Positions 2,775-62,851 are shown, numbered from the stretch's first letter. The stretch: DNA of 64,000 nucleotides from Bacteroidales bacterium (GCA_017616895.1 JAFZXE010000027.1:18438-82437), one strand, 5' to 3'. The notes: a model not told the origin generated them from the letters alone. Numbers and translations: made by a program.

Positions 2775-2816
2775 GAATGTGTTATTGCACCCCAACGCAA
2801 TAACACATTCTTTTTA
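2775..2816 (+). terminator. rho-independent terminator after ppdK
   Basis: Perfect 14-bp stem GAATGTGTTATTGC / GCAATAACACATTC with an 8-nt loop, followed by TTTTT. The arms are inverted copies of the TTAACGCAAT/ACACATT word family. Confidence 0.8.
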
Positions 2817-2827
2817 ATAAAACCCCC

Positions 2828-2868
2828 TCTAGAAAATCTAGTATATCTAGAAAATCTAGTTCCTCTAG
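2828..2868. repeat. tandem word array (TCTAGAAAATCTAG x2 plus partial copy)
   Basis: Direct reading gives TCTAGAAAATCTAGTATATCTAGAAAATCTAGTTCCTCTAG, upstream of sdaA. Confidence 0.8.
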
Positions 2869-2883
2869 CCCTTCTAAACAAAA

Positions 2884-5275: not shown

Positions 5276-5391
5276 TATGTGGCTGACAGCTATTATTCGG
5301 AGAGAAATATCTCAGATTTCTTGAAGAAATACTCCATTTTGTTTTATTTCTACTCTAATTCTGTTTTATTTCTCTTCCGCTAACCGCTAAA

Positions 5392-7646: not shown

Positions 7647-7686
7647 GCAGGGTCGTCAGACTATACAAACCCACAATTACACGCAC

Positions 7687-7725
7687 AGAAGCGGGGCAAC
7701 CATCAATTGCCCCGCTTCTTTTTTA
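7687..7725 (+). terminator. rho-independent terminator after pruA
   Basis: 13-bp stem AGAAGCGGGGCAA / TTGCCCCGCTTCT followed by TTTTTT. Confidence 0.85.
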
Positions 7726-7734
7726 CCCCAGCAT

Positions 7735-7752
7735 CCCCCCCCAAAAAAAAAA
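7735..7752. repeat. homopolymer tract C8 A10
   Basis: Direct count gives C at 7735-7742 and A at 7743-7752. A second C6A7 tract is at 7833-7845. Confidence 0.9.
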
Positions 7753-7774
7753 CATATTAAACCCCGCACCCAAA

Positions 7775-7902
7775 ACTTCATACAGCCCCCACGCAACCTC
7801 CAATCCAACCCCACAACCCAAACTTCATACATCCCCCCAAAAAAACTCCAATCCAATCCCACAACCCAGACTTCATACAGACTTCATACAGACCTGATAC
7901 AG
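7775..7902. repeat. C/A-rich word array (ACTTCATACAG family) with a 34-nt direct repeat
   Basis: CTCCAATCCAA(C/T)CCCACAACCCA(A/G)ACTTCATACA occurs at 7798-7831 and 7846-7879 (2 mismatches). Tandem 11-mers ACTTCATACAG, ACTTCATACAG, ACCTGATACAG are at 7870-7902. Confidence 0.9.
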
Positions 7903-7989
7903 ACCCCACCCATACCTTGAGCACACCGCTATTCCAAAAGTGAGGGAACAAACAGATGTGTTTATTCTGAAAAAATTAGTATCTTTGCA

Positions 7990-7997
7990 TATTTAAT
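7990..7997 (+). promoter_or_regulatory. Bacteroidota -7 box (TATCTTTG)
   Basis: Lies 41 nt upstream of the glnS ATG. Confidence 0.6.
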
Positions 7998-8037
7998 GAA
8001 TAGTCTTTATATATATAATATTCTATAATTCTTTAAT

Positions 8038-9741: not shown

Positions 9742-9744
9742 ACG

Positions 9745-11180: not shown

Positions 11181-11259
11181 ATCCATCAACATAAAACATA
11201 TCAACATATCAACATAAAACCTATCAACAGTAAAAGTAAAAAGTAAACGGTAAACAACC
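11181..11259. repeat. word array (CATATCAAC family, then GTAAA(A/C) family)
   Basis: ATCCATCAACATAAAACATATCAACATATCAACATAAAACCTATCAACAGTAAAAGTAAAAAGTAAACGGTAAAC, directly upstream of pheT. Confidence 0.9.
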
Positions 11260-13769: not shown

Positions 13770-13783
13770 GTGCGTGCCCGCAC
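13770..13783 (+). repeat. stop-proximal palindromic motif GTGCGTGCCCGCAC
   Basis: Stem GTGCG/CGCAC with a 4-nt loop, 12 nt after the pheT stop. The identical 14-mer (reverse strand) is at 57986-57999 and 59184-59197. A 1-mismatch copy is at 24212-24225 and a variant is at 15448-15461. Confidence 0.85.
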
Positions 13784-13921
13784 TTTAAGGTTTAAAAGGT
13801 TTAAAAGGGTTCAAACAATCAACAGGTCACAGATCACAGGTCACATATCAACATATCAACAGAAAACATATCAACATATCAACGGTAAACATATCAACAT
13901 ATCAACAGTAAACCCATCAAC
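13784..13921. repeat. composite word array (AAGGTTTAA, TTCAAAC, GGTCACA, CATATCAAC modules)
   Basis: Read directly. The exact 30-mer CGCACTTTAAGGTTTAAAAGGTTTAAAAGG (13779-13808) recurs at 15457-15486. The exact 30-mer AAAAGGGTTCAAACAATCAACAGGTCACAG (13803-13832) recurs at 14386-14415. Confidence 0.95.
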
Positions 13922-13927: not shown

Positions 13928-14344
13928 ATGCTCGGACTTTTAAAATATGATGTGAAAGTGCTTCTCGCGTTGCAGCAGGCCATGAGGGGGAAGGACGACT
14001 TCTTCAACTGGCTGGTCAATGCGGGCTATCCTGAGCTTGCGGCTTTCTACAATCTTATCGAGGAAGACGAGGAGGCTGAGGCTTGGTTGGTGAAACATGG
14101 CTACCATTGGCTGGGTCTTTTAAGTCACGCCATCGACGGCGAGGATGCAGCGAGAGCGTGGGTGTTGAAAAACCTCCACCGCGCCAACTTCATGTTCTGC
14201 ATGGCTTGCAGGAAAGACGATCTGGCTATATCGTGGCTCAGACAGATGAAACTCGAAGTATTGCTGCGACTGGCACAGGAGGTCGCCGACATCAGAAAAA
14301 AGCAAGAGTCCGATGCCGCCTTCCCCTACAAGATGAGATTTTAA
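13928..14344 (+). CDS. hypothetical protein (138 aa)
   Basis: Clean ORF with ATG and composition like its neighbours. No recognisable motif. Flanked on both sides by composite word arrays. Confidence 0.5.
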   Translation: MLGLLKYDVKVLLALQQAMRGKDDFFNWLVNAGYPELAAFYNLIEEDEEAEAWLVKHGYHWLGLLSHAIDGEDAARAWVLKNLHRANFMFCMACRKDDLAISWLRQMKLEVLLRLAQEVADIRKKQESDAAFPYKMRF

Positions 14345-14440
14345 GGTTTGAAAGGTTCAAAAGGTTTAAAAGGTTTAAAGGGTTCAAAAGGGTTCAAACA
14401 ATCAACAGGTCACAGGTCAACATATTAACGCAATTACACA
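14342..14440. repeat. composite word array (AAGGTTTAA, GGTCACA, TTAACGCAAT modules)
   Basis: Begins at the stop codon of the 138-aa ORF and contains the 30-mer shared with 13803-13832. Confidence 0.95.
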
Positions 14441-15447: not shown

Positions 15448-15461
15448 GTGCGAGCTCGCAC
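15448..15461 (+). repeat. stop-proximal palindromic motif variant GTGCGAGCTCGCAC
   Basis: Perfect 14-nt palindrome 6 nt after the rluB stop. It is followed by the same TTTAAGGTTTAAAAGG array seen after pheT. Confidence 0.85.
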
Positions 15462-15555
15462 TTTAAGGTTTAAAAGGTTTAAAAGGTTTGAAACATTCAA
15501 ACGTATCAACATATCAACATATTAACGCAATCACGCAATAACACATTAACACAAT
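15462..15555. repeat. composite word array (AAGGTTTAA, TTCAAAC, TATCAAC, TTAACGCAAT modules)
   Basis: TTTAAGGTTTAAAAGGTTTAAAAGGTTTGAAACATTCAAACGTATCAACATATCAACATATTAACGCAATCACGCAATAACACATTAACACAAT, ending 5 nt before the aspS ATG. Confidence 0.95.
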
Positions 15556-15560
15556 AAAAA

Positions 15561-17312: not shown

Positions 17313-17356
17313 CACCACGTCCAAATACATTAACGCATTAACACATGCTTCCACCA

Positions 17357-17386
17357 AAAGCAGCCCAATACCTAGGGCTGCTTTTT
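17357..17386 (+). terminator. rho-independent terminator after aspS
   Basis: Stem AAAAGCAGCCC / GGGCTGCTTTT followed by a T-run. Confidence 0.8.
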
Positions 17387-17426
17387 CCATTTTCACTGCT
17401 TCCAAACACACTGACACAGTCCCTAA

Positions 17427-17455
17427 CTCTGTATCAACTCTGTATCAAGTCTGTG
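17427..17455. repeat. tandem word array CTCTGTATCAA x2.5
   Basis: Direct reading gives CTCTGTATCAACTCTGTATCAAGTCTGTG. Confidence 0.8.
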
Positions 17456-17577
17456 TTGGGACTTCACATCCATGACGACTGAAGACGATTTCCTATGTCG
17501 CACCCCTACCAGTACAGACCTTGAAAAAATGTTGATTAGTAGTTCATAAATGACCGGCCGAATCACAATATTTTGCG

Positions 17578-17585
17578 TATATTTG
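17578..17585 (+). promoter_or_regulatory. Bacteroidota -7 box (TATATTTG)
   Basis: Lies 32 nt upstream of the ATG at 17617. Confidence 0.6.
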
Positions 17586-17616
17586 CAGTTTATTATTAAA
17601 CCTTTCGCGCAGGCGT

Positions 17617-18132
17617 ATGGGAAAGATTATCAGAAGATATAAGTCGGAGATTCATGGCAACTACCGTGTGGCGTACCTTAAGTGGGGCTTGTTGACGGGT
17701 CTCGTGCTTTCTCTCTACTTGTTGGTCAGGCATTGGTCCGGTGCCCCATGCTCCACTCCCGCCGACTTGGGGAAGGACGGCTTGCTTGTGGTGGGGATAG
17801 CGGTGGCGATGTATTTCTACAGGAGGTCGCTGCAGGACGGGAAGGTTACGATGAAGGAGCTGCTGCTCATGGGTTTAGGTGCAGGCTTGGTGGCGGCGGT
17901 GGTGTATGGGTTGTTTGTGTGGCTGTATTGCGGGGTGATGTATCCGGAGATGACGGGTGTGTATGCGGAGCGGTTCAAGACGGAGGAGTCGGCGGCGGAG
18001 GGCTATGTGGCTGCGTTGAACCCTGGGATGTGGGCGCTGATGTTCGGCTTCGTGAACACTTTTCTGACGTCTATAATCGTGACGTTCTTCGGTGCGCTTG
18101 TGTTCAGGACGGAGAAGGCGGATCGGGTGTGA
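17617..18132 (+). CDS. small integral membrane protein (DUF4199-like)
   Basis: 171 aa with 4 predicted TM helices, directly upstream of a GT2 gene as is common for DUF4199 in Bacteroidales. The family assignment is from memory. Confidence 0.5.
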   Translation: MGKIIRRYKSEIHGNYRVAYLKWGLLTGLVLSLYLLVRHWSGAPCSTPADLGKDGLLVVGIAVAMYFYRRSLQDGKVTMKELLLMGLGAGLVAAVVYGLFVWLYCGVMYPEMTGVYAERFKTEESAAEGYVAALNPGMWALMFGFVNTFLTSIIVTFFGALVFRTEKADRV

Positions 18133-18208
18133 GTTTTAAGTTTTAAGCTGTAAGTTTTAAGTAATCATATCAACGTATCAACATATCAACAGAAAACTTA
18201 TCAACATT
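18133..18208. repeat. word array (GCTGTAAGTTTTAAG then CATATCAAC family)
   Basis: GTTTTAAGTTTTAAGCTGTAAGTTTTAAGTAATCATATCAACGTATCAACATATCAACAGAAAACTTATCAAC. It shares 15-mers with 40838-40869. Confidence 0.9.
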
Positions 18209-21310: not shown

Positions 21311-21484
21311 GGTTTGTTGATATGTTGATACGTTGATATGTTGATATGATAAAAAGGTTTGAAAGGTTTTGATAAGTCTAATAAGTCCAATGGGTCTAAT
21401 AAGTCTAAATAGGTCTAATAAGTCTAATGGGTTGATAGTTTGATATGTTGTTAAGAGGTCATAAAGGTTTTAGAGGTTTTAATG
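21311..21484. repeat. composite word array (GTTGATATG, AAGGTTT, TAAGTCTAAT(GGG) modules), running into the next ORF
   Basis: GTTGATATGTTGATACGTTGATATGTTGATATG, then GGTTTGAAAGGTTTTG, then ATAAGTCTAATAAGTCCAATGGGTCTAATAAGTCTAAATAGGTCTAATAAGTCTAATGGG. The first ~13 codons of the downstream ORF (HKGFRGFNG) are AAGGTTTTA words. Confidence 0.95.
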
Positions 21485-24211: not shown

Positions 24212-24225
24212 GTACGTGCCCGCAC
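24212..24225 (+). repeat. stop-proximal motif copy GTACGTGCCCGCAC
   Basis: One mismatch to the 13770 copy, 2 nt after the stop at 24210. Confidence 0.75.
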
Positions 24226-24320
24226 GGGACAGATTATTTTGTGAAATTGTGAATTATTCGCTTGATTTAATTTGATACAGCGGTGCTCATGAATGCTAAA
24301 GCATTTGACAAATGAAACTC

Positions 24321-24394
24321 TAACCCTTTAAACTTTCAAACCTTTAACCCCTTAAACCTATCAACGTATCAACATATTAACACAATAATAAATC
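24321..24394. repeat. composite word array (TTAAACCTT = reverse of AAGGTTTAA; TATCAAC; TTAACACAAT)
   Basis: TAACCCTTTAAACTTTCAAACCTTTAACCCCTTAAACCTATCAACGTATCAACATATTAACACAATAATAAATC, ending 3 nt before the bactofilin ATG. Confidence 0.9.
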
Positions 24395-24784: not shown

Positions 24785-24822
24785 CCCTTCAACCCCTTTA
24801 AACATATCAACCTATCAACAAT
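24785..24822. repeat. word array (CCTTCAAC, CATATCAAC)
   Basis: CCCTTCAACCCCTTTAAACATATCAACCTATCAACAAT fills the 41-nt spacer. Confidence 0.85.
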
Positions 24823-24825: not shown

Positions 24826-26373
24826 TTGAAACCCGACAACTCCACCGTTTTAGCCCTCTTCCGCCAGTGGGCCGGCGTCGATTGTGAGCTATGTTCAGAG
24901 CTCGGAGCCAACGGCTCCAACCGCAAGTACCTCCGTCTCTCCGCAAGCGGCAAATCCTGCATCGCCGCCATAAACGACGACCTTCGCGAAAACGAAGCTT
25001 TCCTCTATTTCTCCCGCGAGATGAAGTCCCGTGGAATAAGTGTGCCACAGATATACGCAGTCAGCGGCGACCATCGCTGTTACCTGCAGCAAGACCTTGG
25101 CGACACCACCTTATATTCATATCTCTATGCTAAACGTCAGAGCGGAGTTGGGTTTGATGGAGAGTCGATAGAACTATACAAGCAGGTCCTTTCAGACCTT
25201 GTAGATATACAGACACGTTGTCGTGATGTGAATTTCAATCATGCATATCCGCGTAGCGATTTCGACAGACAGGCGATACAGTGGGACTTTAACTATTTCA
25301 AGTATTTCTTCCTTAAGCTACTCTACGTACCCTTCGACGAGCAGCTCCTCGAAAACGACTTCCAGGTGCTTATAGATTACCTGCTCGCTGGCGACTGCTC
25401 CGCCTTCATGTACCGCGACTTCCAGACACGTAATATTATGGTGGTTAGCGGTCAGCTGTCGGTTTCTGGTTGCCGGTCACATGTATCAGATCACGGGTTA
25501 CAACTATACTACATCGACTACCAGGGTGCTCGCAGAGGTGCTCCACAGTACGACGCAGCCTCGCTTCTTTACAGTTCAAAGGCCGAGATACCCGAAGCCA
25601 TAAGGCAGGAATTACTTAAGCATTATGTCGATTGCTATTATCGTCAAGCAGTCAGCGGTCAGTCTTTGTGCACAAGTCACAAGTCACAGGTCACTAGGGA
25701 ATCTTTCACCCAGCGTTTCTACGCATACGTCCTCGCACGTATTATGCAGGCGATGGGTGCATACGGCTATCGGGGGCTTTATGAGCGCAAGGATTATTTT
25801 ATAAACAGCATACCGCTTGCGGTTTCAAATCTTCGAACTGTAGTCGAAAAACTGCCGCAAGAACTGAATATTCCGCATCTAAGGGAAGTGTTTAATGCAA
25901 TAGTAAACTCACAATTAGCAGTCAGCGGTCAGCAGTTTGCAACCCTTCAACCCTTCAATCCTTCACATTCCACAATACCTTCAGACGAATTGACAGTGAC
26001 TGTTGGAAGTTTTTCATACAAGAAAGGGTTGCCGACTGATCCGTCAGGCAATGGAGGCGGATTCATTTTCGACTGCCGCGCGTTGCCCAATCCAGGTCGC
26101 TATCCCGAATATCGGAATGTTACAGGCAAGGACCCGTCGGTTATTGCATTTTTGCAAAAAGAAGAAGCCGTATCTCATTTTATCGACCACGCCTGCGCTC
26201 TCGTCTCACAATCCGTGAAAAAATATACCGAGCGCAAGTTTTCCAGTCTTCAGGTATTCTTCGGCTGCACCGGCGGCCAGCATCGCTCCGTCTATTGTGC
26301 CGAACAAATGGCCTCCTTCCTCCGTAAAAACTTTGATTGTCACGTTGTTCTAAAACATCGTGAGCAGTCTTGA
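24826..26373 (+). CDS. fusion protein: APH-fold (AmgK-like) kinase domain plus RapZ C-terminal domain
   Basis: The N-terminal ~350 aa carry the kinase catalytic region YRDFQTRNIMV and IDYQGARRGAPQYDAASLL, the APH/AmgK pattern HRDxxxxN ... IDFQDA. The C-terminal ~125 aa (LTVTVGSFSYKKGLP, FDCRALPNPGRYPEYRNVTGKD, AFL, GCTGGQHRSVYCAEQ) align motif for motif with the RapZ C-domain. TTG start. Confidence 0.75.
   Translation: MKPDNSTVLALFRQWAGVDCELCSELGANGSNRKYLRLSASGKSCIAAINDDLRENEAFLYFSREMKSRGISVPQIYAVSGDHRCYLQQDLGDTTLYSYLYAKRQSGVGFDGESIELYKQVLSDLVDIQTRCRDVNFNHAYPRSDFDRQAIQWDFNYFKYFFLKLLYVPFDEQLLENDFQVLIDYLLAGDCSAFMYRDFQTRNIMVVSGQLSVSGCRSHVSDHGLQLYYIDYQGARRGAPQYDAASLLYSSKAEIPEAIRQELLKHYVDCYYRQAVSGQSLCTSHKSQVTRESFTQRFYAYVLARIMQAMGAYGYRGLYERKDYFINSIPLAVSNLRTVVEKLPQELNIPHLREVFNAIVNSQLAVSGQQFATLQPFNPSHSTIPSDELTVTVGSFSYKKGLPTDPSGNGGGFIFDCRALPNPGRYPEYRNVTGKDPSVIAFLQKEEAVSHFIDHACALVSQSVKKYTERKFSSLQVFFGCTGGQHRSVYCAEQMASFLRKNFDCHVVLKHREQS
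25444..25494. repeat. in-frame intergenic-type words inside the kinase domain
   Basis: GTTAGCGGTCAGCTGTCGG ... GGTCACATGTATCAGATCAC encodes VSGQLSVSGCRSHVSDH, between the catalytic loop and the IDYQ (DFG-equivalent) motif. Confidence 0.8.
25647..25694. repeat. in-frame intergenic-type words (AGCAGTCAGCGGTCAG; CACAAGTCACAAGTCACAGGTCAC)
   Basis: The exact 16-mer AGCAGTCAGCGGTCAG is shared with 25917-25932. The GTCACA words are as in the intergenic arrays. Confidence 0.85.
25915..25983. repeat. in-frame intergenic-type words forming the inter-domain linker
   Basis: TTAGCAGTCAGCGGTCAGCAG followed by CAACCCTTCAACCCTTCAATCCTTCACATTCCACAATACCTTC encodes LAVSGQQFATLQPFNPSHSTIPS, between the kinase and RapZ_C domains. 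Confidence 0.85.
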
Positions 26374-29658: not shown

Positions 29659-29660
29659 AA

Positions 29661-29734: not shown

Positions 29735-29735
29735 A

Positions 29736-30328: not shown

Positions 30329-30355
30329 TAATTTAGTTGGTGATTGATAAGAATT

Positions 30356-38010: not shown

Positions 38011-38050
38011 TAGTTCTTTTCATAACATAATATAAGAATCCCAAAACCAA

Positions 38051-38078
38051 AGAGACTCCCCGGCGGGAGCCTCTTTTC
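38051..38078 (+). terminator. rho-independent terminator (imperfect stem)
   Basis: AGAGACTCCC / GGGAGCCTCT (one mismatch) with loop CGGC, followed by TTTT. Confidence 0.6.
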
Positions 38079-38133
38079 GTTTACAAACCACTGACCACTG
38101 ACTTTATGCTGTTGCGTGATGGGATTTCTCGTT

Positions 38134-38162
38134 GTGCCGGATTTGTAATCCGGCACTTTTTT
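38134..38162 (+). terminator. strong hairpin plus T-run (second, tandem terminator-like element)
   Basis: 9-bp stem GTGCCGGAT / ATCCGGCAC with loop TTGTA, followed by TTTTTT. It contains the GGATTTGTAATCC palindrome. Confidence 0.7.
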
Positions 38163-38201
38163 CTCGGGATTTGTAATCCCACCCTCAATATGGACTTCAC
38201 T

Positions 38202-38239
38202 CGGACTTCATACGGACCTGATTCGGACCTAGTCCCCTC
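38202..38239. repeat. tandem 11-nt word array (GACTTCACTCG, GACTTCATACG, GACCTGATTCG, GACC)
   Basis: Same word family and same internal order as 7870-7902. Confidence 0.85.
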
Positions 38240-38264
38240 AATATGTATATAAGTGGTGTTGATA

Positions 38265-38300
38265 ATAAGCAAAGCGAGGCTCCCGTGTGAGAGCCTCGCT
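38265..38300 (-). terminator. rho-independent terminator after sppA
   Basis: 10-bp stem AGCGAGGCTC / GAGCCTCGCT. On the minus strand it is followed by TTGCTTATT. Confidence 0.65.
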
Positions 38301-38304
38301 TCAT

Positions 38305-38350
38305 CTACTGCCAGCTAACCACTGGCCACTGATTACTGACCACTGATCAC
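38305..38350. repeat. word array CCACTGA(C/T) family
   Basis: CTACTGCCAGCTAACCACTGGCCACTGATTACTGACCACTGATCAC overlaps the sppA stop codon. A related CCACTGACCACTGAC is at 38088-38102. Confidence 0.85.
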
Positions 38351-40158: not shown

Positions 40159-40176
40159 AGGGGGGTATTGTTTAAT

Positions 40177-40258
40177 GTTGATATGTTTATGTTGATATGA
40201 TTATTGTTGATATGTTGATATGTCCAATAAGTCTAATGGGTCTTATAAGTCTAATGGG
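40177..40258. repeat. word array (GTTGATATG x5; TAAGTCTAATGGG x2)
   Basis: GTTGATATGTTTATGTTGATATGATTATTGTTGATATGTTGATATG, then TCCAATAAGTCTAATGGGTCTTATAAGTCTAATGGG. The 15-mer ATAAGTCTAATGGGT is shared with 21419-21433. Confidence 0.9.
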
Positions 40259-40394: not shown

Positions 40395-40832
40395 ATGAAA
40401 CGTATAACTATTCTTTTCGCTTTGGCCGCTGTGGCGGTAATGTTTCTCTGCACCGCTTCATCGCGCCGTGAGCCGTACGATTTCAACGGCACCTGGGTGG
40501 TCGGCACCGCCGACGGCGCCCGTTTCGGGGGCGAGCTCTATTTCTATGTGAAACTCAAGCAGGATGGCGAGCAGCTCACCGGCACCTACTATTCCATAAG
40601 CCAGAAAAACGCCCGTCGCGACGTGAATCCGGCCAACACCGTGCGTGGCTATGCGAAGAAAAAATACGCCGTTATCGAGTTCAGCAGCGCCGAGTGGGGT
40701 GGGGGTGGAGTTGCCGAACTGCGCCCGATAGACAAGAACACCATCTCGTGGCACATAGAATCGGAGAAGAAGGTGGGCAACGCCGACTTCGGCCATTGGG
40801 CTCCCAACCGCGCACGATTGACGAGGCAATGA
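40395..40832 (+). CDS. hypothetical secreted protein
   Basis: 145 aa with a signal peptide. No recognisable domain. Confidence 0.5.
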   Translation: MKRITILFALAAVAVMFLCTASSRREPYDFNGTWVVGTADGARFGGELYFYVKLKQDGEQLTGTYYSISQKNARRDVNPANTVRGYAKKKYAVIEFSSAEWGGGGVAELRPIDKNTISWHIESEKKVGNADFGHWAPNRARLTRQ

Positions 40833-40837
40833 GTTTC

Positions 40838-40944
40838 AGGTTTTAAGCTGTAAGCTGTAAGTTTTAAGTGCACAGCAGTCAGCAGAAACTTTCTGGTCAC
40901 AGGTCACAGATCACTAATCACTATTGTCAATTCACTATTCACAA
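40838..40944. repeat. composite word array (GCTGTAAGTTTTAAG; CAGCAGTCAGCAG; GGTCACAGGTCACAGATCAC; ATTCACTATTCACAA)
   Basis: Four word families in a row. It shares 15-mers with 18133-18162 and words with 13825-13845, 28665-28696 and 25917-25935. Confidence 0.95.
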
Positions 40945-44807: not shown

Positions 44808-45042
44808 TAACTGAAAATTGGAGCGACCAAACTTCTTTTGTTAAAAACGGTTAAAGATTTTGAAAAAGTTATTTATGTTTTTTTGTTTGTTAATAGTTTG
44901 ATTTATTGTTTGTTTTGGATATGGGGGATGGGGTGGGTGGTTGTGTTTGCAAAGATACAATCTCGACATTGCGGTTTAGGAATGAATTGGCTGATGGTTT
45001 TTCATTTTCTTTGAATGGGTTGAATATTAGTTGATTGGTGAT

Positions 45043-45131
45043 GGAAGTTATGGGAGTTATGGGAACAATGAGAATCGTGAGAGGGTACAGGGAGGATATT
45101 GGGAGTTTATACGGAGTTTCTTGGGAGTTTC
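45043..45131. repeat. word array GGGAGTT family
   Basis: GGAAGTTATGGGAGTTATGGGAAC ... GGGAGGATATTGGGAGTTTATACGGAGTTTCTTGGGAGTTTC. It contains the 21-mer shared with 33929-33949. Confidence 0.9.
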
Positions 45132-45261
45132 TTTTTTGGGGGGATTTCGTTTGGTGACAACGAGTTGAATGAAGGTTTGGAAATTGGGTGTGAATCAGTG
45201 TTTTCTGAGAAATGTTGAAAGAAAAATGGCTTGGGATTCGTAAACCGCAACGGGGATGTTG

Positions 45262-45269
45262 TATCTTTG
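45262..45269 (+). promoter_or_regulatory. additional -7 box (TATCTTTG) far upstream of korA
   Basis: Lies 199 nt upstream of the korA ATG. It may be a second promoter or the start of a short transcript. Confidence 0.35.
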
Positions 45270-45414
45270 CAGTCGGGAATGGGAGATGCGAGAAACGGGT
45301 GAGAGGTCAATATATCAACATGTTAACCTGCTGATTTTGCGATTGATTTAATGGGTTGTTGAAATGTTGTGGGAAATAAAGGCGTGGGAACGTCAAAACA
45401 CCGAAAAAAAGTTG

Positions 45415-45467: not shown

Positions 45468-47306
45468 ATGTCACAAGACCAGATTTGCAATAAAGAAGAC
45501 CTGGTGGTGCGTTTTGCAGGCGACTCGGGCGACGGAATGCAGCTTTCCGGCACCCTCTTCTCCGATGCCTCCGCACTTACGGGCAACGACATCGCAACAT
45601 TCCCCGACTACCCGGCCGAGATACGCGCTCCGCACAACACCATCGCGGGCGTATCGGGCTATCAGGTGCACGTGGGTAACCACATCTACAGCTCGGGCGA
45701 CAAGTGCGACATCCTGATCGCGATGAACCCCGCTTCGTTCAAGTCGAACCTGAAGTGGGCCAAGAAGGGTGCCACCGTTATCGTCGATATCGACACTTTC
45801 ACCGACGAGGCGATGGAGAAAGCCGGCTACACGGAGAACCCGTTCAGCGACGAGCTGGAGCGCGCATACACGATAATCAAGGCTCCCGTGACTTCGTTCA
45901 CCGCCAAGATAGGGCAGGAACAGGGCGCCGACAAGAAGACCGCCGACAAGTGCCGCAACATGTTTGCGCTGGGTATCGTCTTCTACGCCACCCACAAGAC
46001 TCTCGACCAGACCTTTGCATATCTGGAGCGCAAGTTCGCCAAGAAACCCGACGTGGTGAAGCTGAACAAGGCCGTCCTCAGCGCGGGTTATGAATATGCT
46101 GACAAACTCGAGGTGATGCACTCGCATATCTTCGAGGTGGCTCACGCCGAGATGCCCAAGGGCAAATATCGCAACATCACTGGTAACGTGGCTACCGCAT
46201 GGGGTCTTCTGGCCGCATCGGAGCGCAGCGGACGCCAGCTGTTCCTTGGCAGCTATCCTATCACCCCGGCTACCGACGTGATGGTGGAGCTGTCGAAGCA
46301 TAAATCGCTCGGTGCACGTGTGTTCCAGGCTGAGGACGAGATTGCGGGCGTATGCTCGGCTATCGGTGCCTCATACGCAGGTGCGCTGGCTTGCACCTCC
46401 ACTTCCGGTCCTGGTCTCTCGCTTAAGAGTGAGGCTCTTGGTTTGGCCGTGATGGTTGAACTGCCGTTGGTGGTGGTCGATGTGCAGCGTGGCGGTCCTT
46501 CGACCGGCTTGCCAACCAAGACCGAGCAGAGCGACCTGAACCAGGCTCTCTATGGCCGTAACGGTGAGGCTCCGCTGGTGGTGGTTGCCGCTTCGTCGAG
46601 TGCCAACTGCTTCTATTGGGCCTACAACGCAGCCAAGATAGCATTGGAGCACATGACTCCCGTCATCCTGCTCACCGATGGTTATCTGGGCAACGGCTCA
46701 CAGCTGTTCCGCATACCTAAGGTGGCCGACTTGCCGAGCATCACCCCGCGTATGGCAACCCCGAACGACCCGAACTACCGTCCGTTCCGTCGCGACGACG
46801 AGAAATACGCCCGCTGGTGGGCACTGCCCGGCATGGAAGGCTTGAGCCACCGTGTCGGAGGCCTTGAGAAATGCCCCGACGGTCCGCTCAGCACCGATCC
46901 CGAGAACCACGCCCTCATGACCAAGAACCGTCAGGAGAAAGTGAACCGCGTGGCCAACTACATCCCCGACCAGGAAGTGACCGGCAACCCCGACGCCGAC
47001 CTGCTCGTGGTGGGTTGGGGCGGCACCGCTGGCGCTCTCACACTCGCCGTAGAGGAGATGAACAAAGAAGGCAAGAAAGTGGCTTACACCCATTTCAACT
47101 ATATCTGCCCGCTGCCGAAGAACACGGGCGACATACTGCGCAAATACAAGAAAATCGTGGTATGCGAGCTCAACAACGGTCAGTTTGCAGGTTATCTCCG
47201 CACCCAGTTCCCCGAATGTCCGATGACCCAGTACAACAAGATTATGGGTCTGCCGTTCGAGGTGTGCGAGTTGAAAGACCACTTCAATAAACTCCTTGAG
47301 AAATAA
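45468..47306 (+). CDS. korA: 2-oxoglutarate/2-oxoacid:ferredoxin oxidoreductase, alpha (fused gamma-alpha) subunit
   Basis: 612 aa. The N-terminal gamma-like domain (RFAGDSGDGMQLSG) is fused to the alpha domain (GSYPITPATD), as in two-subunit KorAB enzymes. Confidence 0.88.
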   Translation: MSQDQICNKEDLVVRFAGDSGDGMQLSGTLFSDASALTGNDIATFPDYPAEIRAPHNTIAGVSGYQVHVGNHIYSSGDKCDILIAMNPASFKSNLKWAKKGATVIVDIDTFTDEAMEKAGYTENPFSDELERAYTIIKAPVTSFTAKIGQEQGADKKTADKCRNMFALGIVFYATHKTLDQTFAYLERKFAKKPDVVKLNKAVLSAGYEYADKLEVMHSHIFEVAHAEMPKGKYRNITGNVATAWGLLAASERSGRQLFLGSYPITPATDVMVELSKHKSLGARVFQAEDEIAGVCSAIGASYAGALACTSTSGPGLSLKSEALGLAVMVELPLVVVDVQRGGPSTGLPTKTEQSDLNQALYGRNGEAPLVVVAASSSANCFYWAYNAAKIALEHMTPVILLTDGYLGNGSQLFRIPKVADLPSITPRMATPNDPNYRPFRRDDEKYARWWALPGMEGLSHRVGGLEKCPDGPLSTDPENHALMTKNRQEKVNRVANYIPDQEVTGNPDADLLVVGWGGTAGALTLAVEEMNKEGKKVAYTHFNYICPLPKNTGDILRKYKKIVVCELNNGQFAGYLRTQFPECPMTQYNKIMGLPFEVCELKDHFNKLLEK

Positions 47307-47353
47307 CCTATAAGTCACATAAGACCTATAAGTCCTATAAGACATATAGGCCC
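47307..47353. repeat. word array (C)CTATAAG(T/A)C family between korA and korB
   Basis: CCTATAAGTCACATAAGACCTATAAGTCCTATAAGACATATAGGCCC. Confidence 0.85.
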
Positions 47354-47369
47354 TAAAAAAATAGAAACA

Positions 47370-54260: not shown

Positions 54261-54284
54261 CGAAATAGTTTTGAGTTTAACAAT

Positions 54285-54380
54285 TTTTTATTGCGTTAAT
54301 GTGTTATTATGGGATTGCGTTAGTGTGTTTTTTATTGCGTTAATGTGTTATTGTGGGATTGCGTTAGTGGTTTATTGCGA
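54285..54380. repeat. word array (ATTGCGTTAATGTG family) containing a 44-nt-period tandem duplication
   Basis: TTATTGCGTTAATGTGTTATT(A/G)TGGGATTGCGTTAGTG occurs at 54288-54325 and 54332-54369. Confidence 0.9.
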
Positions 54381-54774: not shown

Positions 54775-54893
54775 TATATTATTGCGTTATTGCGTAATTG
54801 TGTTAATGCGTTAGTGATTGTGTAATTGTGTTAATGCGTTAATGTGTTAGTGATTGCGTTAATGTGTTAGTGTGTTATTGCGTTAGTGTCTTG
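54775..54893. repeat. word array (ATTGCGTTA / ATTGTGTTAATGCGTTAGTG family) filling the recF-DUF721 spacer
   Basis: The exact 25-mer ATTGCGTTATTGCGTAATTGTGTTA (54781-54805) recurs at 57930-57954. Confidence 0.95.
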
Positions 54894-57914: not shown

Positions 57915-57977
57915 GATTGAAAAGTTGTAATTGCGTTATTGCGTAATTGTGTTATTGCGTTAGTTGCCGACTGCTTT
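57915..57977. repeat. word array (ATTGCGTTATTGCGTAATTGTG family)
   Basis: Fills the lpdA-M23 spacer and contains the 25-mer shared with 54781-54805. Confidence 0.9.
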
Positions 57978-57999
57978 ATTGCCCTGTGCGGGCACGCAC
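57978..57999 (-). repeat. 22-nt element containing the stop-proximal palindrome (minus-strand sense GTGCGTGCCCGCACAGGGCAAT)
   Basis: Abuts the lpdA stop codon (58000-58002). An exact 22-nt copy lies inside lpdA at 59176-59197. Confidence 0.9.
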
Positions 58000-59400
58000 T
58001 TAACCGTGTATCGCTTTGCCGTAGGCGGCTTCGATGGCTTCCATCACGGCTTCGCTCATCGTGGGGTGCGGATGCACGGCGTGGGCAATCTGCTTTGCGG
58101 TGAGACCGTTTTCGCGGGCGGTCACTATCTCGGCGATCATCTCGGTCACGTTGTCGCCACACATGTGGCATCCCAGCAGCTTGTCGGTGGCTTTGTCGAT
58201 GACCACTTTCACAAATCCGTCGGTGTTGCCGGCGGCGGTGGCTTTGCCGCTGGCTTTGAAGAAGAATTTTCCGACGAGGATGTCCATTCCAGCCTCGCGG
58301 GCTTTCTTCTCCGAGAGGCCCACGCTTGCAACTTCGGGTGTCGTGTAGGTACAGCCGGGAATGTTGTCGTACGACACCTTATGTGGGTCGCCACCACAGA
58401 GTTTCTCAACGCAGCAGATGGCTTCGGCACTCGCCACATGGGCCAAAGCAGGACCGTGCACCACATCGCCGATGGCGTAGTAGCCCTCGACATTGGTCTT
58501 GTAGTAGTCGTCAACGATTATTTTTCCGCGTTCGAAAGCTATGCCCGTCTCTTCGAGGCCTATGCCTTCGAGGTTGGTCACCACGCCCACGGCCGACAGC
58601 ACCACGTCGCAATCAATGACCGTCTCGGTGCCTTTCTTCTGGTCTTTTACCGTCACATGGCACACATTGCCGTCGATATCGACCTTATCGACACTCGACG
58701 ACACCATCACCTTCATGCCCATCTTGCGGAACGAGCGGCTTATCTGCGCCGCCGTGTCCTCGTCCTCGTTGGGAAGAATCTGCGGCATGAACTCGACCAG
58801 GGTCACCTGCACGCCTATCGACTGGTAGAAGAATGCGAACTCGCTACCGATGGCACCGCTGCCGCACACGAGCATCGACTTGGGTTTCTGAGGGAGCGTC
58901 ATGGCCTCGCGGTAGCCGATGATGTGCTTGCCGTCCTGCGGCATGGCGGGCATCACCTTGCTGCGCGCGCCAGTGGCTATGATGATATGGTTGGCCTCGT
59001 AGATGGTCTCCGAGCCGTCGGCGGTCTTGACGGCCACTTTCTTGCCAGGCATCACGCGGGCGGTGCCGTTGATTACCTCCACGCCGTTCTTGTTGAGCAA
59101 GAACTGCACGCCCTTGCTCATCGTGGCGGCCACTCCCCTACTCCGCTCTACCATGGCGGCCAGGTCGGCCTCCAAATTGCCCTGTGCGGGCACGCACCCG
59201 TAGGCGGCAGAATGGTTGATATAGTTGAACACCTGAGCGCTCTTGAGCAGCGCCTTGGTGGGGATGCAGCCCCAGTTGAGACAGATGCCTCCGAGGTTCT
59301 CGCGCTCGACGACGGCGGTTTTCAGGCCCATCTGGGCTCCTTTGACGGCGGCCACATAGCCTCCCGGCCCGCTGCCTATGACAATCAAATCGTAGTTCAT
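58000..59400 (-). CDS. lpdA: dihydrolipoyl dehydrogenase
   Basis: 466 aa with FAD motif GSGPGGY, redox-active disulfide GGICLNWGCIPTK, NAD motif GSGAIGSEFA, and the C-terminal HPHPTMSE interface motif. Confidence 0.92.
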   Translation of the reverse strand: MNYDLIVIGSGPGGYVAAVKGAQMGLKTAVVERENLGGICLNWGCIPTKALLKSAQVFNYINHSAAYGCVPAQGNLEADLAAMVERSRGVAATMSKGVQFLLNKNGVEVINGTARVMPGKKVAVKTADGSETIYEANHIIIATGARSKVMPAMPQDGKHIIGYREAMTLPQKPKSMLVCGSGAIGSEFAFFYQSIGVQVTLVEFMPQILPNEDEDTAAQISRSFRKMGMKVMVSSSVDKVDIDGNVCHVTVKDQKKGTETVIDCDVVLSAVGVVTNLEGIGLEETGIAFERGKIIVDDYYKTNVEGYYAIGDVVHGPALAHVASAEAICCVEKLCGGDPHKVSYDNIPGCTYTTPEVASVGLSEKKAREAGMDILVGKFFFKASGKATAAGNTDGFVKVVIDKATDKLLGCHMCGDNVTEMIAEIVTARENGLTAKQIAHAVHPHPTMSEAVMEAIEAAYGKAIHG

Positions 59401-59449: not shown

Positions 59450-59679
59450 GAAAAAAACAAAAAATATACCCTATCGCCACAAACATCCGCAATCTAACAT
59501 GGGAAATGGAAACAAGACGAAGCCATTAACGAATTAGAAAACGAAATAATTTGAATGCAGAACTAATTGTAAATGAGGCAATCTCATAATATATTAAAAA
59601 AAACGCATGCAGGAGATAAAACATCATTGAGATGGGACCTTCGGCGGCAATAAGATTCGGGTTATGGCGTTTTTATTGT

Positions 59680-60477
59680 ATGAAACGGCTGTTTCTTATC
59701 TGCGCCGTGATTGTGGCCTTCGGATCGGCACATGCACAAGTGAAGGGCGGGGTTGACTCCATCTGGGTCAGCCATGTCGCGATGCCGGGTAGTATTTTTA
59801 CCTGCAGTTACTCTAACGGCACACTTACGATGGAGGGACAAAACGGAGATGGTGAAGATCGGACCATCAAGCTCGACGACAGCTGCGCAAGGCGTTTCGT
59901 CGAGTTGGCGAAACCAGCGTTCTTAGACGCAAGCCCCGTTGCAAAAGAACTTGACTATTATGCAACCGACGAGCTATTGATTCAAATCAGATGTATCCGC
60001 AAACACAAGCTTGTCTATAAAACCGAATTCTATTACGGCTCGCACGTAGGGACTCCGGCGTTCAACGCATTTGTGGAATGGCTGGGGAATACGTTTGTCC
60101 GCAACACGTTCATTGTCAAGGCCGACGAGCTGGAAATCAAATCACGCAGCTGGATTGCATGCCCTGATATTGTCGAAGCACCCGACGACGTGCCGACAAA
60201 AGTGAGCCGCATCGTAGAAAACATAGACAGCCACAGTTTGAGCGTGACCCTCATGCTCAAAGACTCGTCGGACAATCCAGTTCCGCATCCAGTGGCCTAC
60301 GAGCTGCGCCGCGAAGGCGACGTGTTTGTGAAAGACCGCGAGCTGGCAAAGGGTGACAAATCAGGCAAGGTGACTTTCATCTACAGTTACGGGAGCGTAG
60401 AATATGTAGCGGTTCACGCCCCGGGCTATGAAACCAAAGTCCTGAGCTTTGAGCACCCGCTGATTGACAGCGAGTAA
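59680..60477 (+). CDS. hypothetical secreted protein
   Basis: I chose the ATG at 59680, which gives the signal peptide MKRLFLICAVIVAFGSAHA. No recognisable domain. Confidence 0.45.
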   Translation: MKRLFLICAVIVAFGSAHAQVKGGVDSIWVSHVAMPGSIFTCSYSNGTLTMEGQNGDGEDRTIKLDDSCARRFVELAKPAFLDASPVAKELDYYATDELLIQIRCIRKHKLVYKTEFYYGSHVGTPAFNAFVEWLGNTFVRNTFIVKADELEIKSRSWIACPDIVEAPDDVPTKVSRIVENIDSHSLSVTLMLKDSSDNPVPHPVAYELRREGDVFVKDRELAKGDKSGKVTFIYSYGSVEYVAVHAPGYETKVLSFEHPLIDSE

Positions 60478-60550
60478 CGCATCTGACACATTTATTTTCA
60501 ATAAAAGGCAATCTCCAATATGTCGGGCTTGCCTTGGGGGTTTTCACTAT

Positions 60551-62851
60551 TTAGTGTTCGAGAGTCCACTGTCCGGCTTGTAAAGTTTGCTCTTTGTTGG
60601 TGCCGGGGAATATGGTGGCGGTGGTGCCTTCGGGGATGGATATAGTGAAGGTGTGAAGGTGTGGAGGTGTGAAGGTGTTAGCGCTAACATTCTCTACACC
60701 AGAATGTTCCTCGTAAGGCTCGCTAACTTTGTTATACTTGATTTCGACTTTTATGTCGCCATAGAGGGTTGGTTTCGAGGCTTTCACCCATTCTATGCCT
60801 TCGCAGGGCTGCGGGTCGATGTAGAAATGCTTGTAACCAGGATGTTGGGGATCTGGACGGATGCCGGCCAACGCCTGGTAGAACCAGATGCCGATTCCGT
60901 TGTAGCAGTTGTGCACACGGCTGCGGTCCTCCTTGCCTTCACGTCCACAGTCCCATGACTCCCAGGTTGTTGTGGCACCGTTGTTTATCATATATAGATA
61001 ACCTGGGTAATCGGGTTGGCGTAAGATGGTGGCCATCAGATCGGTCTGCCGCTCTTGGATGCACCACTCGGTGAAGATTGGCACCCCCATGAGCCCTCCT
61101 GCAATATGGTCGCGGTATTTATCGTGACAGTCTTTGAGTAGCTGATCTTTGACAGCCTTTGCGATGACACTGTCGGGAGGGATTCCCATAAGTAATGCGT
61201 AGGCTTGGTCGAGAGGTGTACCGTTGGCGTAGGTGTGACTCTCGGGGTGGTAGAAGTGGCGGTGGATGGATGACTTGAGATGTTGTTGCCACTCGGCATA
61301 TCGAATAGAATCAGCTGGGTGCCCTGTGATATGAGCCATCTGAATCATATTCCCCAGACATTCAGCGATAAAACAACTGTTCACATGCAGCACCGACTCC
61401 CCTCCTATGTCAACCCCTTCGGGAGCCAACCAGTCACCGAGAAACCATGAGTGCCGCTCGTTGTCGGGCCAAGGTTGGAGGATATAATCCTCGCAATTCC
61501 TCTCGATGAACTCCAGCCAACGCTTCATTTTGATATATTGCTCGCCGAAAATGATGAATTCACCGTAATTGAGGTAAGTGCGCCATGGGGCTTTGATAAT
61601 GAAGCCGCTCCAGTAGGGTCCTCCGCCCGTGCGGAAGGCAGGCGCCACGTAGGGCAACTCGCCGTCGGGCTCCATGGCATCACACCACGCCCACAGCCAG
61701 TCCTCGTAGGTGTCGCTTACGTCCCAGATGGTTTGAAGCGTCATTGTTGACGAGTTGCCGTCGCCACCGTAACCCATGCGCTCCAGGTGCGGGCAATCGA
61801 CCATATAGCCGCTGAATGTCAAGCATCCGAGAGTGTATTTCACCATGTCGTGGATGGCGTTGAGACGAGGGTCGGAACACTCGAAAGTGGCACCTTCCTT
61901 GGGGTTCACGGCACTGATCTGCAGGGCTCGGGCGTTCAGAACGTCGGCGCCTTTGATGCGTACATATCGGAAGGCGTGAGTATGGAAACGGTTGGAGAAA
62001 TGCTCGATGACACTGTTGTTGGCTATGTAAATATCCGTCTCGGTATGAGGAGGTTTGGCATCTTTGTGGTCGAGGTATTCCATAGTTACCTCATGGCCTT
62101 CCGGCACAGTTGAAAAGTCCGCTTGAAACCAACCTGTAGTCACTTTGCCAAAATCAATCATTATGGCGTTGTCGGGCTGTGTTGAAACACTAGATGGTGC
62201 CAACGTATCGACAATTCGATTGCCTTTGAATACCTGCTGGATGGTATGCAATTTTATCATCCTGAATCCTGGAACCGTGCTTTCCTCTGTTCCAAAAATC
62301 TTGTCAAGTGGCAATCTTTTCGCGGGTTTCCATACGGGTTTTACCCTGGAGTCAAATTGCTCACCCCCAAATTGCAATGGTTGCCAGCTGCCAGTGTAGC
62401 TGTAGCCCATCGGCGAAGCCTCCCACGTAGTGTCCGTTTCTGCAACTGGCATTATGAAATCCAACAAAGCTTCGGCTTGCACGCCCGCCGGCGTTCCATA
62501 AATTCGCCCCCAACCTTGTCCAACACATATCAACAGCTCGTTCTCACCTTCTTTCAGAGTCCCCCTCGTTTCGTAACACACCATCATTGCGCTCTTATTC
62601 AGCTGCGATACTGCGGGTTGCATTACATGATCACCGACTTTTTGTCCGTTGACATACACCTCATGGTAGCCTAGCGAGGTAACATTCAAAATCAATCTGC
62701 CATAGGCAAGTTCCTTTTTTGTCAGAGTAAACTTCTTTCTCACCATTGCCGTCTCCGCCCAGCCGTCGCCTTCACGGCAGCCAATAAACTGCTGTGCTTC
62801 AACGGAAATGGCAGCGAGCAGCAACCATGATATGACGATGAGTTTTTTCAT
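60551..62851 (-). CDS. GH78-like alpha-L-rhamnosidase-family six-hairpin glycosidase
   Basis: 766 aa with a signal peptide, a rhamnosidase-N-like domain, and catalytic-domain motif MVDCPHLERMGYGGDGN (GH78 pattern DCPxRERxGWxGD). Confidence 0.7.
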   Translation of the reverse strand: MKKLIVISWLLLAAISVEAQQFIGCREGDGWAETAMVRKKFTLTKKELAYGRLILNVTSLGYHEVYVNGQKVGDHVMQPAVSQLNKSAMMVCYETRGTLKEGENELLICVGQGWGRIYGTPAGVQAEALLDFIMPVAETDTTWEASPMGYSYTGSWQPLQFGGEQFDSRVKPVWKPAKRLPLDKIFGTEESTVPGFRMIKLHTIQQVFKGNRIVDTLAPSSVSTQPDNAIMIDFGKVTTGWFQADFSTVPEGHEVTMEYLDHKDAKPPHTETDIYIANNSVIEHFSNRFHTHAFRYVRIKGADVLNARALQISAVNPKEGATFECSDPRLNAIHDMVKYTLGCLTFSGYMVDCPHLERMGYGGDGNSSTMTLQTIWDVSDTYEDWLWAWCDAMEPDGELPYVAPAFRTGGGPYWSGFIIKAPWRTYLNYGEFIIFGEQYIKMKRWLEFIERNCEDYILQPWPDNERHSWFLGDWLAPEGVDIGGESVLHVNSCFIAECLGNMIQMAHITGHPADSIRYAEWQQHLKSSIHRHFYHPESHTYANGTPLDQAYALLMGIPPDSVIAKAVKDQLLKDCHDKYRDHIAGGLMGVPIFTEWCIQERQTDLMATILRQPDYPGYLYMINNGATTTWESWDCGREGKEDRSRVHNCYNGIGIWFYQALAGIRPDPQHPGYKHFYIDPQPCEGIEWVKASKPTLYGDIKVEIKYNKVSEPYEEHSGVENVSANTFTPPHLHTFTISIPEGTTATIFPGTNKEQTLQAGQWTLEH
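60645..60678. repeat. 8-bp tandem repeat GTGAAGGT x4 inside the CDS
   Basis: GTGAAGGT GTGAAGGT GTGGAGGT GTGAAGGT encodes TFTPPHLHTFT on the minus strand. It is followed by the palindrome GTTAGCGCTAAC (60677-60688) and a 7-bp hairpin (60687-60707). Confidence 0.9.

Follow-up and report, generated by a model that had tools for sequence, protein, structure and literature searches.

We analysed a 64,000-nt stretch of a Bacteroidales genome assembly (GCA_017616895.1, JAFZXE010000027.1:18438-82437; hereafter the window, with positions counted from its first nucleotide), in which the spacers between genes carry short tandem arrays of 7-11-nt words. Pfam scans of long open reading frames (ORFs) mapped 47 genes, among them PPDK, several aminoacyl-tRNA synthetases, GyrA, RecF, DciA, PurC and KorAB, together with the Bacteroidota-specific families DUF4199, DUF5715 and DUF3822. 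The nearest species representatives are metagenome-assembled genomes (MAGs) of uncultured rumen Bacteroidales (AspRS identity 87-88%), and exact protein matches put the window in ruminant gastrointestinal metagenome assemblies; on these matches, the host is an uncultured ruminant-gut Bacteroidales. Promoter boxes of the Bacteroidetes -7 type (TAnnTTTG) were seen in some spacers and are absent from many short ones, so that much of the plus-strand gene run looks polycistronic, as far as motifs can tell. A scan for tRNA and tmRNA found no match in the window, and no covariance model of Rfam 15 matched it anywhere at gathering thresholds.

Tandem-word arrays between the genes

Short runs of 7-11-nt words make up about a quarter of the DNA between the genes. 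Tandem Repeats Finder (TRF) located about 46 intergenic arrays of 2-14 copies, the unit measuring 8 nt in 16 of them, 7 nt in 13, 9 nt in 9 and 11 nt in 9; no intergenic array with a 6-, 10- or 12-nt unit was found in the window. Of 6546 intergenic bases, 1802 lie in arrays (27.5%); of 57454 coding bases, 513 do (0.9%), which makes the intergenic share 31 times higher. The 1771 spacer bases under arrays compare with 83 +/- 44 in dinucleotide shuffles (about 20-fold). The initial annotation of this DNA had placed such arrays in almost every spacer; the arrays are real, but their extent was overstated, as 26 of the 39 spacers of at least 20 nt bear one.

The words recur from spacer to spacer. 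We counted 227 distinct 12-mers common to two or more spacers (8.3 +/- 3.6 in shuffles) and 135 such 15-mers (0.1 in shuffles). Exact matches to CATATCAAC number 25 in the window, where shuffles predict 0.45; they lie at 11197-11213, 13844-13906, 15510, 18166-18190, 24803 and 40378 on the plus strand and at 21316-21348, 30216-30325 and 40177-40222 on the minus strand, in agreement with the sites first reported, and the sole genic match is at 62526. The CATATCAAC family is present in nine spacers, the TAACRCAAT family in about six, and AAGGTTTAA and GGTCACA in four each. The proposal of one vocabulary therefore holds for families common to 4-9 spacers but not for several words confined to one locus within the window. 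Single occurrences of a 7-8-mer in other spacers are uninformative, because the chance expectation exceeds 1. Distant loci have composite modules of 20-45 nt in common, in both orientations, which bears out the initial view of the spacers as mosaics and not as sets of independent microsatellites. The array-bearing spacers are as follows (strand in brackets; xN, number of unit copies).

2771-2868 (+): PPDK-to-SDH spacer; a TAACACAAT-family word pairs with its inverse in a terminator-like hairpin (2771-2814), and TCTAGAAAA x3.6 follows (2828-2859)
7738-7917 (+): downstream of the Aldedh terminator and upstream of the promoter of GlnRS (-7 box at 7980); 48-nt C/A-rich repeat x3 and ACTTCATACAG (11 nt) x3.5
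11185-11247 (+): PMT2-to-PheT intercistronic spacer; ATCAACAT x5.9 and AAAAGTA x2.3
13770-13907 (+): cassette of hairpin GTGCGTGCCCGCAC, AAGGTTTAA x2.4, GGTTCAAACAATCAAC, AGGTCAC x3.4 and CATATCAA x8.4
14343-14440 (+): AAGGTTYAA x5.4 overlapping the hyp138 stop codon, then GGTTCAAACAATCAAC, AGGTCAC x2 and TTAACGCAAT
15448-15557 (+): hairpin variant GTGCGAGCTCGCAC, AAGGTTTAA x3.2, AACATATC x3.4 and TAACRCAA x4.4, ending 3 nt upstream of the AspRS start codon
17327-17454 (+): ACATTAAC x2.5 in the AspRS 3' untranslated region (UTR), before the AspRS terminator; AACTCTGTATC (11 nt) x2.7 between terminator and promoter
18132-18207 (+): GTTTTAAG/CTGTAAG array from the DUF4199 stop codon on; second module CATATCAA x5.4, ending 8 nt upstream of the GT2 start codon
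19172-19194 (+): leader words AACACATTCAAACATTCAA, ending 1 nt upstream of the DUF5715 start codon
21315-21428 (-): TGTTGATA x4.2 (CATATCAAC on the minus strand), 4 nt past the YchF stop codon; in its plus-strand part AAGGTTTGAAAGGTTT, then ATAAGTCTA x6.2
24212-24382 (+): hairpin GTACGTGCCCGCAC, inverted ATTCACA words, inverted AAGGTTTAA words (aaccctttaaac and onwards), and AACATATC x3.5 with TTAACACAAT upstream of the bactofilin gene
24801-24820 (+): AACATATC x2.5, ending 5 nt upstream of the APH-RapZ_C start codon; conserved in the sister species L215
28620-28696 (+): TAGCAGY words at the RsmD 3' end; ATTCACA x4.3, ending 8 nt upstream of the PurC start
29663-29734 (-): inverted composite module; TGTGACC x3 (GGTCACA on the minus strand) 4 nt past the PurC stop, and CTGACG/CTAACCG x5, ending 1 nt upstream of the CYTH TTG start codon
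30210-30327 (-): TGATAYGT x7.1 with the CYTH TGA stop inside its first unit, then AAGGTTTAA x3.4 (plus strand) and TGTTGATA x3.5
32441-32564 (+): 11-nt arrays TTAAGTCGAAG x5.2 and CTAGAATTACC x4.8, in a noncoding region conserved with L215
33928-34001 (+): 11-nt GGGAGTT/CGGAGTT arrays past the M28 stop and upstream of the GyrA promoter; a 21-nt string in common with the array at 45090
38087-38351 (+): convergent spacer; ACCACTG x2.3, GGACTTCATTC (11 nt) x3.4 and CACTGAY x3.6
40175-40255 (-): SppA 5' UTR (minus strand; promoter box at 40296); on the sense strand CCCATTAGACTTA x2, then CATATCAACA x5
40832-40942 (+): GTTTTAAG/CTGTAAG array from the hyp145 stop codon on, then CAGCAGTCAGCAG, GGTCACA x2.9 and TCACTAT/ATTCACA x4.6, upstream of the M13 gene
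45041-45133 (+): ATGGGAGTT x2.7 and TTGGGAGTTTC (11 nt) x3.2, between two divergent promoters
47306-47355 (+): ACCTATAAG x4.8, occupying the KorA-to-KorB intercistronic spacer
54284-54377 (-): upstream of ADH; TAACGCAAT/AACACATTAAC words in about 12 sense-strand units of 8 nt
54779-54888 (-): TAACGCAAT/AACACATTAAC family, about 14 units, occupying the RecF-to-DciA intercistronic spacer
57927-57999 (-): hairpin GTGCGTGCCCGCAC with AGGGCAAT immediately past the Lpd stop, then TAACGCAAT x4.6 upstream of the M23 gene

Turnover between strains and species, and arrays inside a gene

Strain spacers were extracted by flanking anchors from ten loci in which an identical 138-aa protein was found. It is very improbable that the arrays arose as errors of short-read metagenome assembly or of consensus calling. 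All sequences do come from metagenome assemblies, and L083 has a scaffold gap (a run of N) at a poly-C/poly-A tract in the orthologue of 7647-8037, the sole sign of assembly difficulty seen among array-bearing spacers. Nevertheless, five independent samples of the same strain (L081, L082, L084, L087 and L090), in two assembler naming styles, carry identical arrays, which argues against artefact; the variation between strains is structured and consistent within lineages (L083 = L085, L086 = L089), no array exceeds about 110 nt, and the same architecture is found in four species.

Three further strain lineages, with flanking genes 95-98% identical, differ systematically in their arrays, and the comparison of orthologous spacers proposed initially shows unit copy number to be polymorphic. 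One-unit steps between strains measure 8 nt (CATATCAA), 11 nt (ACTTCATACAG, one unit shorter in L083 at 7738-7917) and 6 nt (lost in L083/L085 at 11185-11247). Between the window and L083, length changed in 9 of 12 spacers. The spacer that holds the 13770-13907 cassette measures 169, 161, 139 or 38 nt across four strain lineages, the 38-nt form of L088 having lost the whole hairpin/AAGGTTTAA/GGTCACA block (130 nt), and the YchF-to-TPR spacer measures 134, 126 or 82 nt. Words are exchanged and turned as well: in L083/85/88 the 3' GGTCACA/TTAACGCAAT half of the hyp138-to-RluB spacer is swapped for a CATATCAAC array, and in L086/L089 the GCTGTAAGTTTTAAG module, the first module at 18132-18207, is inverted in place. 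The 304-nt AspRS-to-DUF4199 spacer (17313-17616), which contains a terminator and a promoter, shows, in the same strains, nothing but point substitutions, and the arrays within it at 17327-17454 keep their copy number.

We also compared syntenic loci of three congeneric species (L215, L216/L217 and L218), whose identity to the window is 93% for AspRS, 99% for YchF and 74-84% (aa) for the APH protein. Much of the library is shared across these congeners, while its placement differs locus by locus. The common words are CATATCAAC, TAACACAAT, ATTCACA, GGTCACA, GTTTTAAG, CTAGAATTACC and TGGGAGTTTAT, as well as GTTGATATG immediately past the YchF stop codon; orthologous junctions otherwise hold other words in other copy numbers. 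At the PurC/CYTH junction, L216 has an overlapping TGATG, and the window a TTG start with 77 nt of arrays; the distance from CYTH to the DcuC ATG is 31 nt in L216 versus about 143 nt in the window. All four species have kept the promoter spacer that separates APH from hyp236, which is free of arrays. Start-codon calls are disturbed by the arrays at 29655-29740 and 30210-30356: the CYTH start is apparently a TTG directly after the array (an overlapping ATG in L216), and the true DcuC start is probably the ATG at 30356 and not the TTG at 30344.

Library words reappear beyond the window, in about 8 kb on its right and about 7 kb on its left, with TAACGCAAT/AACACAAT upstream of a small gene and 11-nt GATACGGAGTT-type arrays upstream of promoters; this occurrence beyond the window and in sister species is as the initial annotation had anticipated. 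Upstream of the left end, a restriction-modification island is polymorphic between strains at one locus, the form in L229/L231 (3781-6450) standing against that in L230 (3686-6201); one form encodes a Dam-like methylase, DpnII and an N6/N4 methylase, and the other an EcoRII-type enzyme with a C5 methylase. Intergenic arrays of 7-11-nt units are also present in more distant relatives (L001, L003, L006 and L007), where they are built of unrelated words. In intergenic tandem-repeat fraction, the window ranks second of 75 Bacteroidota loci, relatives with other words are also high, and over half of the 75 have virtually none. A metagenome scan for CATATCAAC x2 returned 120 loci, none of them the window's own region; since about 100 chance matches to a 17-mer are estimated for that collection, most are probably chance or unrelated, and contigs were judged informative only with several arrays and other library words. 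Such multi-array contigs, of about 50% GC, have overlapping vocabularies. A scan of viral contigs gave 10 matches, about the chance level.

The library has also entered coding DNA. APH-RapZ_C (24826-26373), a fused APH-kinase/RapZ_C-domain protein, has 515 aa versus 469-477 aa in most homologues, and the excess consists of three hypervariable in-frame insertions, absent from more distant homologues. As DNA, the insertions are lineage-specific library arrays, made of GGTCACA, CAGCGGTCAGC and CAACCCTT in the window, GGTCACA x4.1 in L218 and AACATATC x4.5 in L215, the last read in frame as TYQHINISTYQ. In the window they lie within 25444-25965 (+):

25479-25501 (+), approximate limits: insertion 1, a degenerate GGTCACA array
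25643-25694 (+): insertion 2, CAGCAGTCAGCGGTCAG and CACAAGT/GGTCACA x3.4
25917-25965 (+): insertion 3, AGCAGTCAGCGGTCAGCAG and CAACCCTT x3.2

Library arrays that stand in frame inside an ORF indicate that the array-generating process acts on DNA regardless of RNA function. One composite module, a 7-nt YAGCRGT array joined by a short linker to an NNTCACA array, occupies five sites: two in spacers (one inverted), one across the RsmD 3' end and the next spacer, and two inside the APH-RapZ_C ORF. The 14-nt hairpin GTGCGTGCCCGCAC likewise recurs at five sites. It is contained in an exact 22-nt duplicate, GTGCGTGCCCGCACAGGGCAAT (minus strand), of which the copy at 59176-59197 lies inside the Lpd coding sequence (encoding GCVPAQGN) and the copy at 57978-57999 forms a terminator-like hairpin right past the Lpd stop; in L218, a 35-nt version follows the TPR gene. 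An inverted-repeat scan of the window returned ordinary terminators. Around the arrays we found no terminal inverted repeats except an inverted promoter pair bracketing 45041-45133; comparisons of occupied and empty sites in strains and sister species gave no target-site duplication; and neither the 47 window ORFs nor about 15 kb of extensions encode a transposase, a RAYT (REP-associated tyrosine transposase) or a reverse transcriptase.

Polarity, promoters and a conserved noncoding region

Array orientation depends on position relative to the genes. The counts cover the window and three sister loci. Of the arrays at most 30 nt ahead of a start codon, 23 versus 5 have C>G on the sense strand (p = 9e-4); of those that closely follow a stop and are remote from the next start, 15 versus 5 have G>C (p = 0.04); start-side and stop-side arrays differ in polarity (Fisher p = 1e-4). 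A word family thus shows two faces, G-rich after stops and C-rich before starts, as in the pairs TGTTGATA/CATATCAAC, TGTGACC/GGTCACA and AAGGTTTAA/TTAAACCTT. The initially proposed module order persists as a trend only, in the form of this gradient of G content from stop to start codon, and is not strict. In many cases the distance from the end of an array to the start codon is 1-20 nt. Positions -20 to -1 before start codons hold 45% A and 8% G on the sense strand, and ATG upstream of starts has a frequency of 0.5% in sense versus 2.2% in antisense. Mean predicted folding in 80-nt windows is -4.3 kcal/mol for array-bearing leaders, -10.6 for other initiation regions and -17.8 for mid-gene DNA. 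Initiation in Bacteroidetes dispenses with Shine-Dalgarno pairing and needs unstructured, A-rich leaders with AUG depleted near starts (PMC6847099), and the predicted properties of the array leaders match this pattern. The idea of unstructured leaders therefore fits the start-adjacent arrays but cannot explain those upstream of promoters or in ORFs.

Unit length depends on context as well. All nine arrays of 11-nt units occur in long spacers with promoters or convergent gene ends (sites at 5336-5373, 7867-7904, 17425-17454, 32441-32564, 33928-34001, 38192-38228 and 45099-45133), whereas the short intercistronic spacers lack them and are dominated by 7-9-nt units. An 11-nt unit is close to one helical turn of DNA. 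The divergent promoters of hyp248 and KorA (44948-44983 and 45236-45271) are inverted copies of 36 nt with 83% identity, each with an outward-facing TATCTTTGCA box, and the pair brackets the GGGAGTT arrays. The motif GGATTTGTAATCC forms two hairpins in the TPR2/SppA convergent spacer (38011-38346), has one copy at 32670-32690, and appears again near the restriction-modification island in L229/L230.

The noncoding region 32310-32690, between hyp168 (-) and M28 (+), has 86% mean column identity to L215, end gaps and a 22-nt array indel included, and aligns in near-identical blocks over about 360 nt, far above other spacers. The first of its arrays has exactly two units fewer in L215; the second, CTAGAATTACC x4.8, is conserved in word and copy number. 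We found no obvious ORF here and no Rfam match, including at E <= 1 over 32200-32800. Its conservation suggests that it may be an undescribed noncoding RNA or regulatory region.

Kinship and proposed origin of the arrays

Tandem repeats with 5-11-nt units have been recorded for decades in cyanobacteria, xanthomonads, Beggiatoaceae and a few other lineages; to our knowledge, their origin and function have never been established. The short tandemly repeated repetitive (STRR) sequences of cyanobacteria are heptamers of Calothrix, Anabaena and Nostoc, with families such as CCCCAGT, TTGGTCA and CAACAGT in heterocystous species. By analogy, our arrays most resemble these repeats: both have short tandem units in noncoding DNA, few word families over many loci and related genera (here the CATATCAAC, TAACRCAAT, AAGGTTTAA and GGTCACA families), restriction to a lineage and an occasional invasion of tolerant gene loops. 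On the other hand, the phylum differs and the words are unrelated, only 13 of 47 arrays here are heptameric, units measure 7, 8, 9 and 11 nt, and a spacer combines several word types with stop-to-start polarity. Heptamer repeats are known in Xanthomonas and Nostoc (PMC4692102). In the account of PMC4679880, the long simple sequence repeats (LSSRs) of Mrazek, Guo and Shah (2007) are tandem repeats of 5-11-nt units, mostly intergenic and phylogenetically sporadic, for which polymerase slippage was proposed. Our arrays, too, are head-to-tail repeats of 5-11-nt units beyond chance, mainly intergenic and sporadic among lineages, although LSSRs are a statistical class and not a defined element. We know of no LSSR description with a shared multi-word library, mosaics or an intergenic density of about 27%.

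In bacterial interspersed mosaic elements (BIMEs) the units are imperfect palindromes of 35-40 nt that alternate in orientation, with defined linkers between them and ties to RAYT (Y1) transposases. The kinship with BIMEs and repetitive extragenic palindromic (REP) sequences that was first suggested rests on short motifs that recur as a mosaic in DNA outside genes, often between cistrons, and on a small hairpin recurring by stop codons; it fails because the units here are non-palindromic direct words, alternating palindromes are absent (only the 14-nt hairpin recurs) and no RAYT gene was found in the window or about 15 kb of extensions. BrickBuilt of Porphyromonas gingivalis, an element present in 19 copies, with 23-nt bricks and defined leader and tail subunits with inverted-repeat ends (PMC4596501), shares a Bacteroidales genome, intergenic head-to-tail bricks, multiple copies and strain variation; it is unlike our arrays, which have 7-11-nt units, show no terminal inverted repeats and affect most spacers. 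TAACTGA direct repeats are known from Beggiatoaceae, Cyanobacteria and five Bacteroidetes (MacGregor 2015, PMC4679880), in arrays of 2-6 copies in forward orientation a few nt upstream of starts; binders of the S1, Csp or CsrA type were suggested to give them a post-transcriptional role, and in the five Bacteroidetes 'other heptamer direct repeats' share the TAACTGA-bearing spacers. The window has no match to TAACTGATAACTGA with up to one mismatch, uses many words instead of one, and carries arrays after stops, upstream of promoters and in ORFs as well. The statement that no such elements had been described was consequently too strong, as STRR heptamers, 5-11-nt LSSRs and TAACTGA repeats are published; our literature searches turned up neither these words in any paper nor an account of such repeats in Bacteroidales. 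Other candidates were rejected: a resemblance of ATATCAACA to the DnaA box has two mismatches and the wrong context; DNA uptake sequences, polar motifs like the FtsK-orienting KOPS, and CRISPR differ in architecture; and phase-variation (contingency) simple sequence repeats, which switch expression by unit changes in an ORF or in the promoter spacing of surface or virulence genes, do not fit arrays that flank housekeeping genes (aminoacyl-tRNA synthetases, PurC and GyrA), never stand between promoter elements and keep the reading frame inside an ORF.

On balance, we lean towards the arrays being hypermutable intergenic repeats of the LSSR/STRR type that draw on a lineage-specific library of 7-11-nt words; of the proposals in the initial annotation, footprints of a slippage or insertion process are the best supported. 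We infer that unit number would rise and fall through slipped-strand mispairing, and that composite modules would be copied in either orientation between arrays sharing words, most simply by ectopic recombination or gene conversion, which would keep the library homogeneous within a genus. Arrays would persist in tolerant DNA (intercistronic spacers, 5' and 3' UTRs, terminator-to-promoter DNA and protein surface loops), to which purifying selection would limit them while setting their orientation near starts. Beside start codons, only G-poor, AUG-poor and weakly folding versions would survive, which would suit Shine-Dalgarno-independent initiation in Bacteroidota, and G/T-rich versions would build up after stop codons. 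Several points weigh against this reading. Only about 80 kb of genome (window and extensions) was examined; slippage alone does not account for identical words across loci and species; the copying step was never directly observed, and neither a target-site signature nor a donor-recipient pair nor an enzyme behind it came to light. The reading does not account for the excess of G over C in arrays past stop codons; that a few arrays, such as CTAGAATTACC x4.8, keep both word and copy number from one species to another would be surprising in neutral filler; and a library kept across species could instead point to a sequence-specific function, for example that of a binding protein.

A second reading gives the arrays a role in mRNA. 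They could be multivalent binding sites or ribosome landing pads (e.g., for bS1, RRM or cold-shock-type proteins), with copy number tuning translation or stability per cistron, much as proposed for the TAACTGA repeats (PMC4679880). The strong sense-strand polarity near start codons, the very low predicted structure of array leaders, the many arrays that end 1-20 nt before a start and the requirement of Bacteroidetes leaders for unstructured A-rich RNA (PMC6847099) all speak for it. We nevertheless hold it unlikely, as the words also stand upstream of promoters, reversed after stops, in convergent spacers and in ORFs, different words stand in for each other at orthologous sites, and compact or overlapping junctions suffice at the same genes in sister species and in strain L088. 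At individual junctions the arrays are dispensable; it is plausible that they would be of general benefit, whether as landing pads without structure or as knobs that tune expression.

Alternatively, the modules might be mobile elements of very small size, akin to the small dispersed repeats of cyanobacteria or to MITEs (miniature transposable elements with inverted repeats), that a dedicated enzyme (a transposase, recombinase or reverse transcriptase) inserts in either orientation into tolerant DNA. Such insertion would account for composite modules at distant sites in both orientations and also in ORFs, for the module inverted between strains and the whole block present or absent, for a library common across species despite turnover at single loci, and for the 22-35-nt hairpin element that follows different genes in different species and once lies inside a coding sequence. 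It remains a doubtful reading, given arrays that lack terminal inverted repeats and target-site duplications, the lack of a transposase, RAYT or reverse transcriptase gene in the window or extensions, and the ragged module boundaries and single-unit copy changes that slippage and recombination would give. More speculatively, and with a similarly low expectation, an active, sequence-specific copy-and-paste process in a ruminant-gut Bacteroidales clade might write composite tandem-word modules from a shared library, in either orientation, into any tolerant DNA, including protein loops; the modules would then be a new class of ultra-small mobile element with a putative enzyme, and the host would have co-opted the G-poor orientation as Shine-Dalgarno-free ribosome landing pads.

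What sets this locus apart among 5-11-nt tandem repeats is the density of the arrays, the multi-word mosaic with stop-to-start polarity, the fast strain turnover and the in-frame invasion of a gene. The lineage is an unusually dense and tractable case, with many strain and species comparisons available in public metagenomes and a clear polarity to genes, and the in-frame insertions mark the array process independently of any RNA function. The arrays offer hypervariable markers for the strain typing of gut Bacteroidales, and they call for caution in gene callers and MAG pipelines over start-codon and spacer annotation in array-rich genomes. For the biology of the group, they bear on how intercistronic leaders are built in bacteria that initiate translation without a Shine-Dalgarno sequence.

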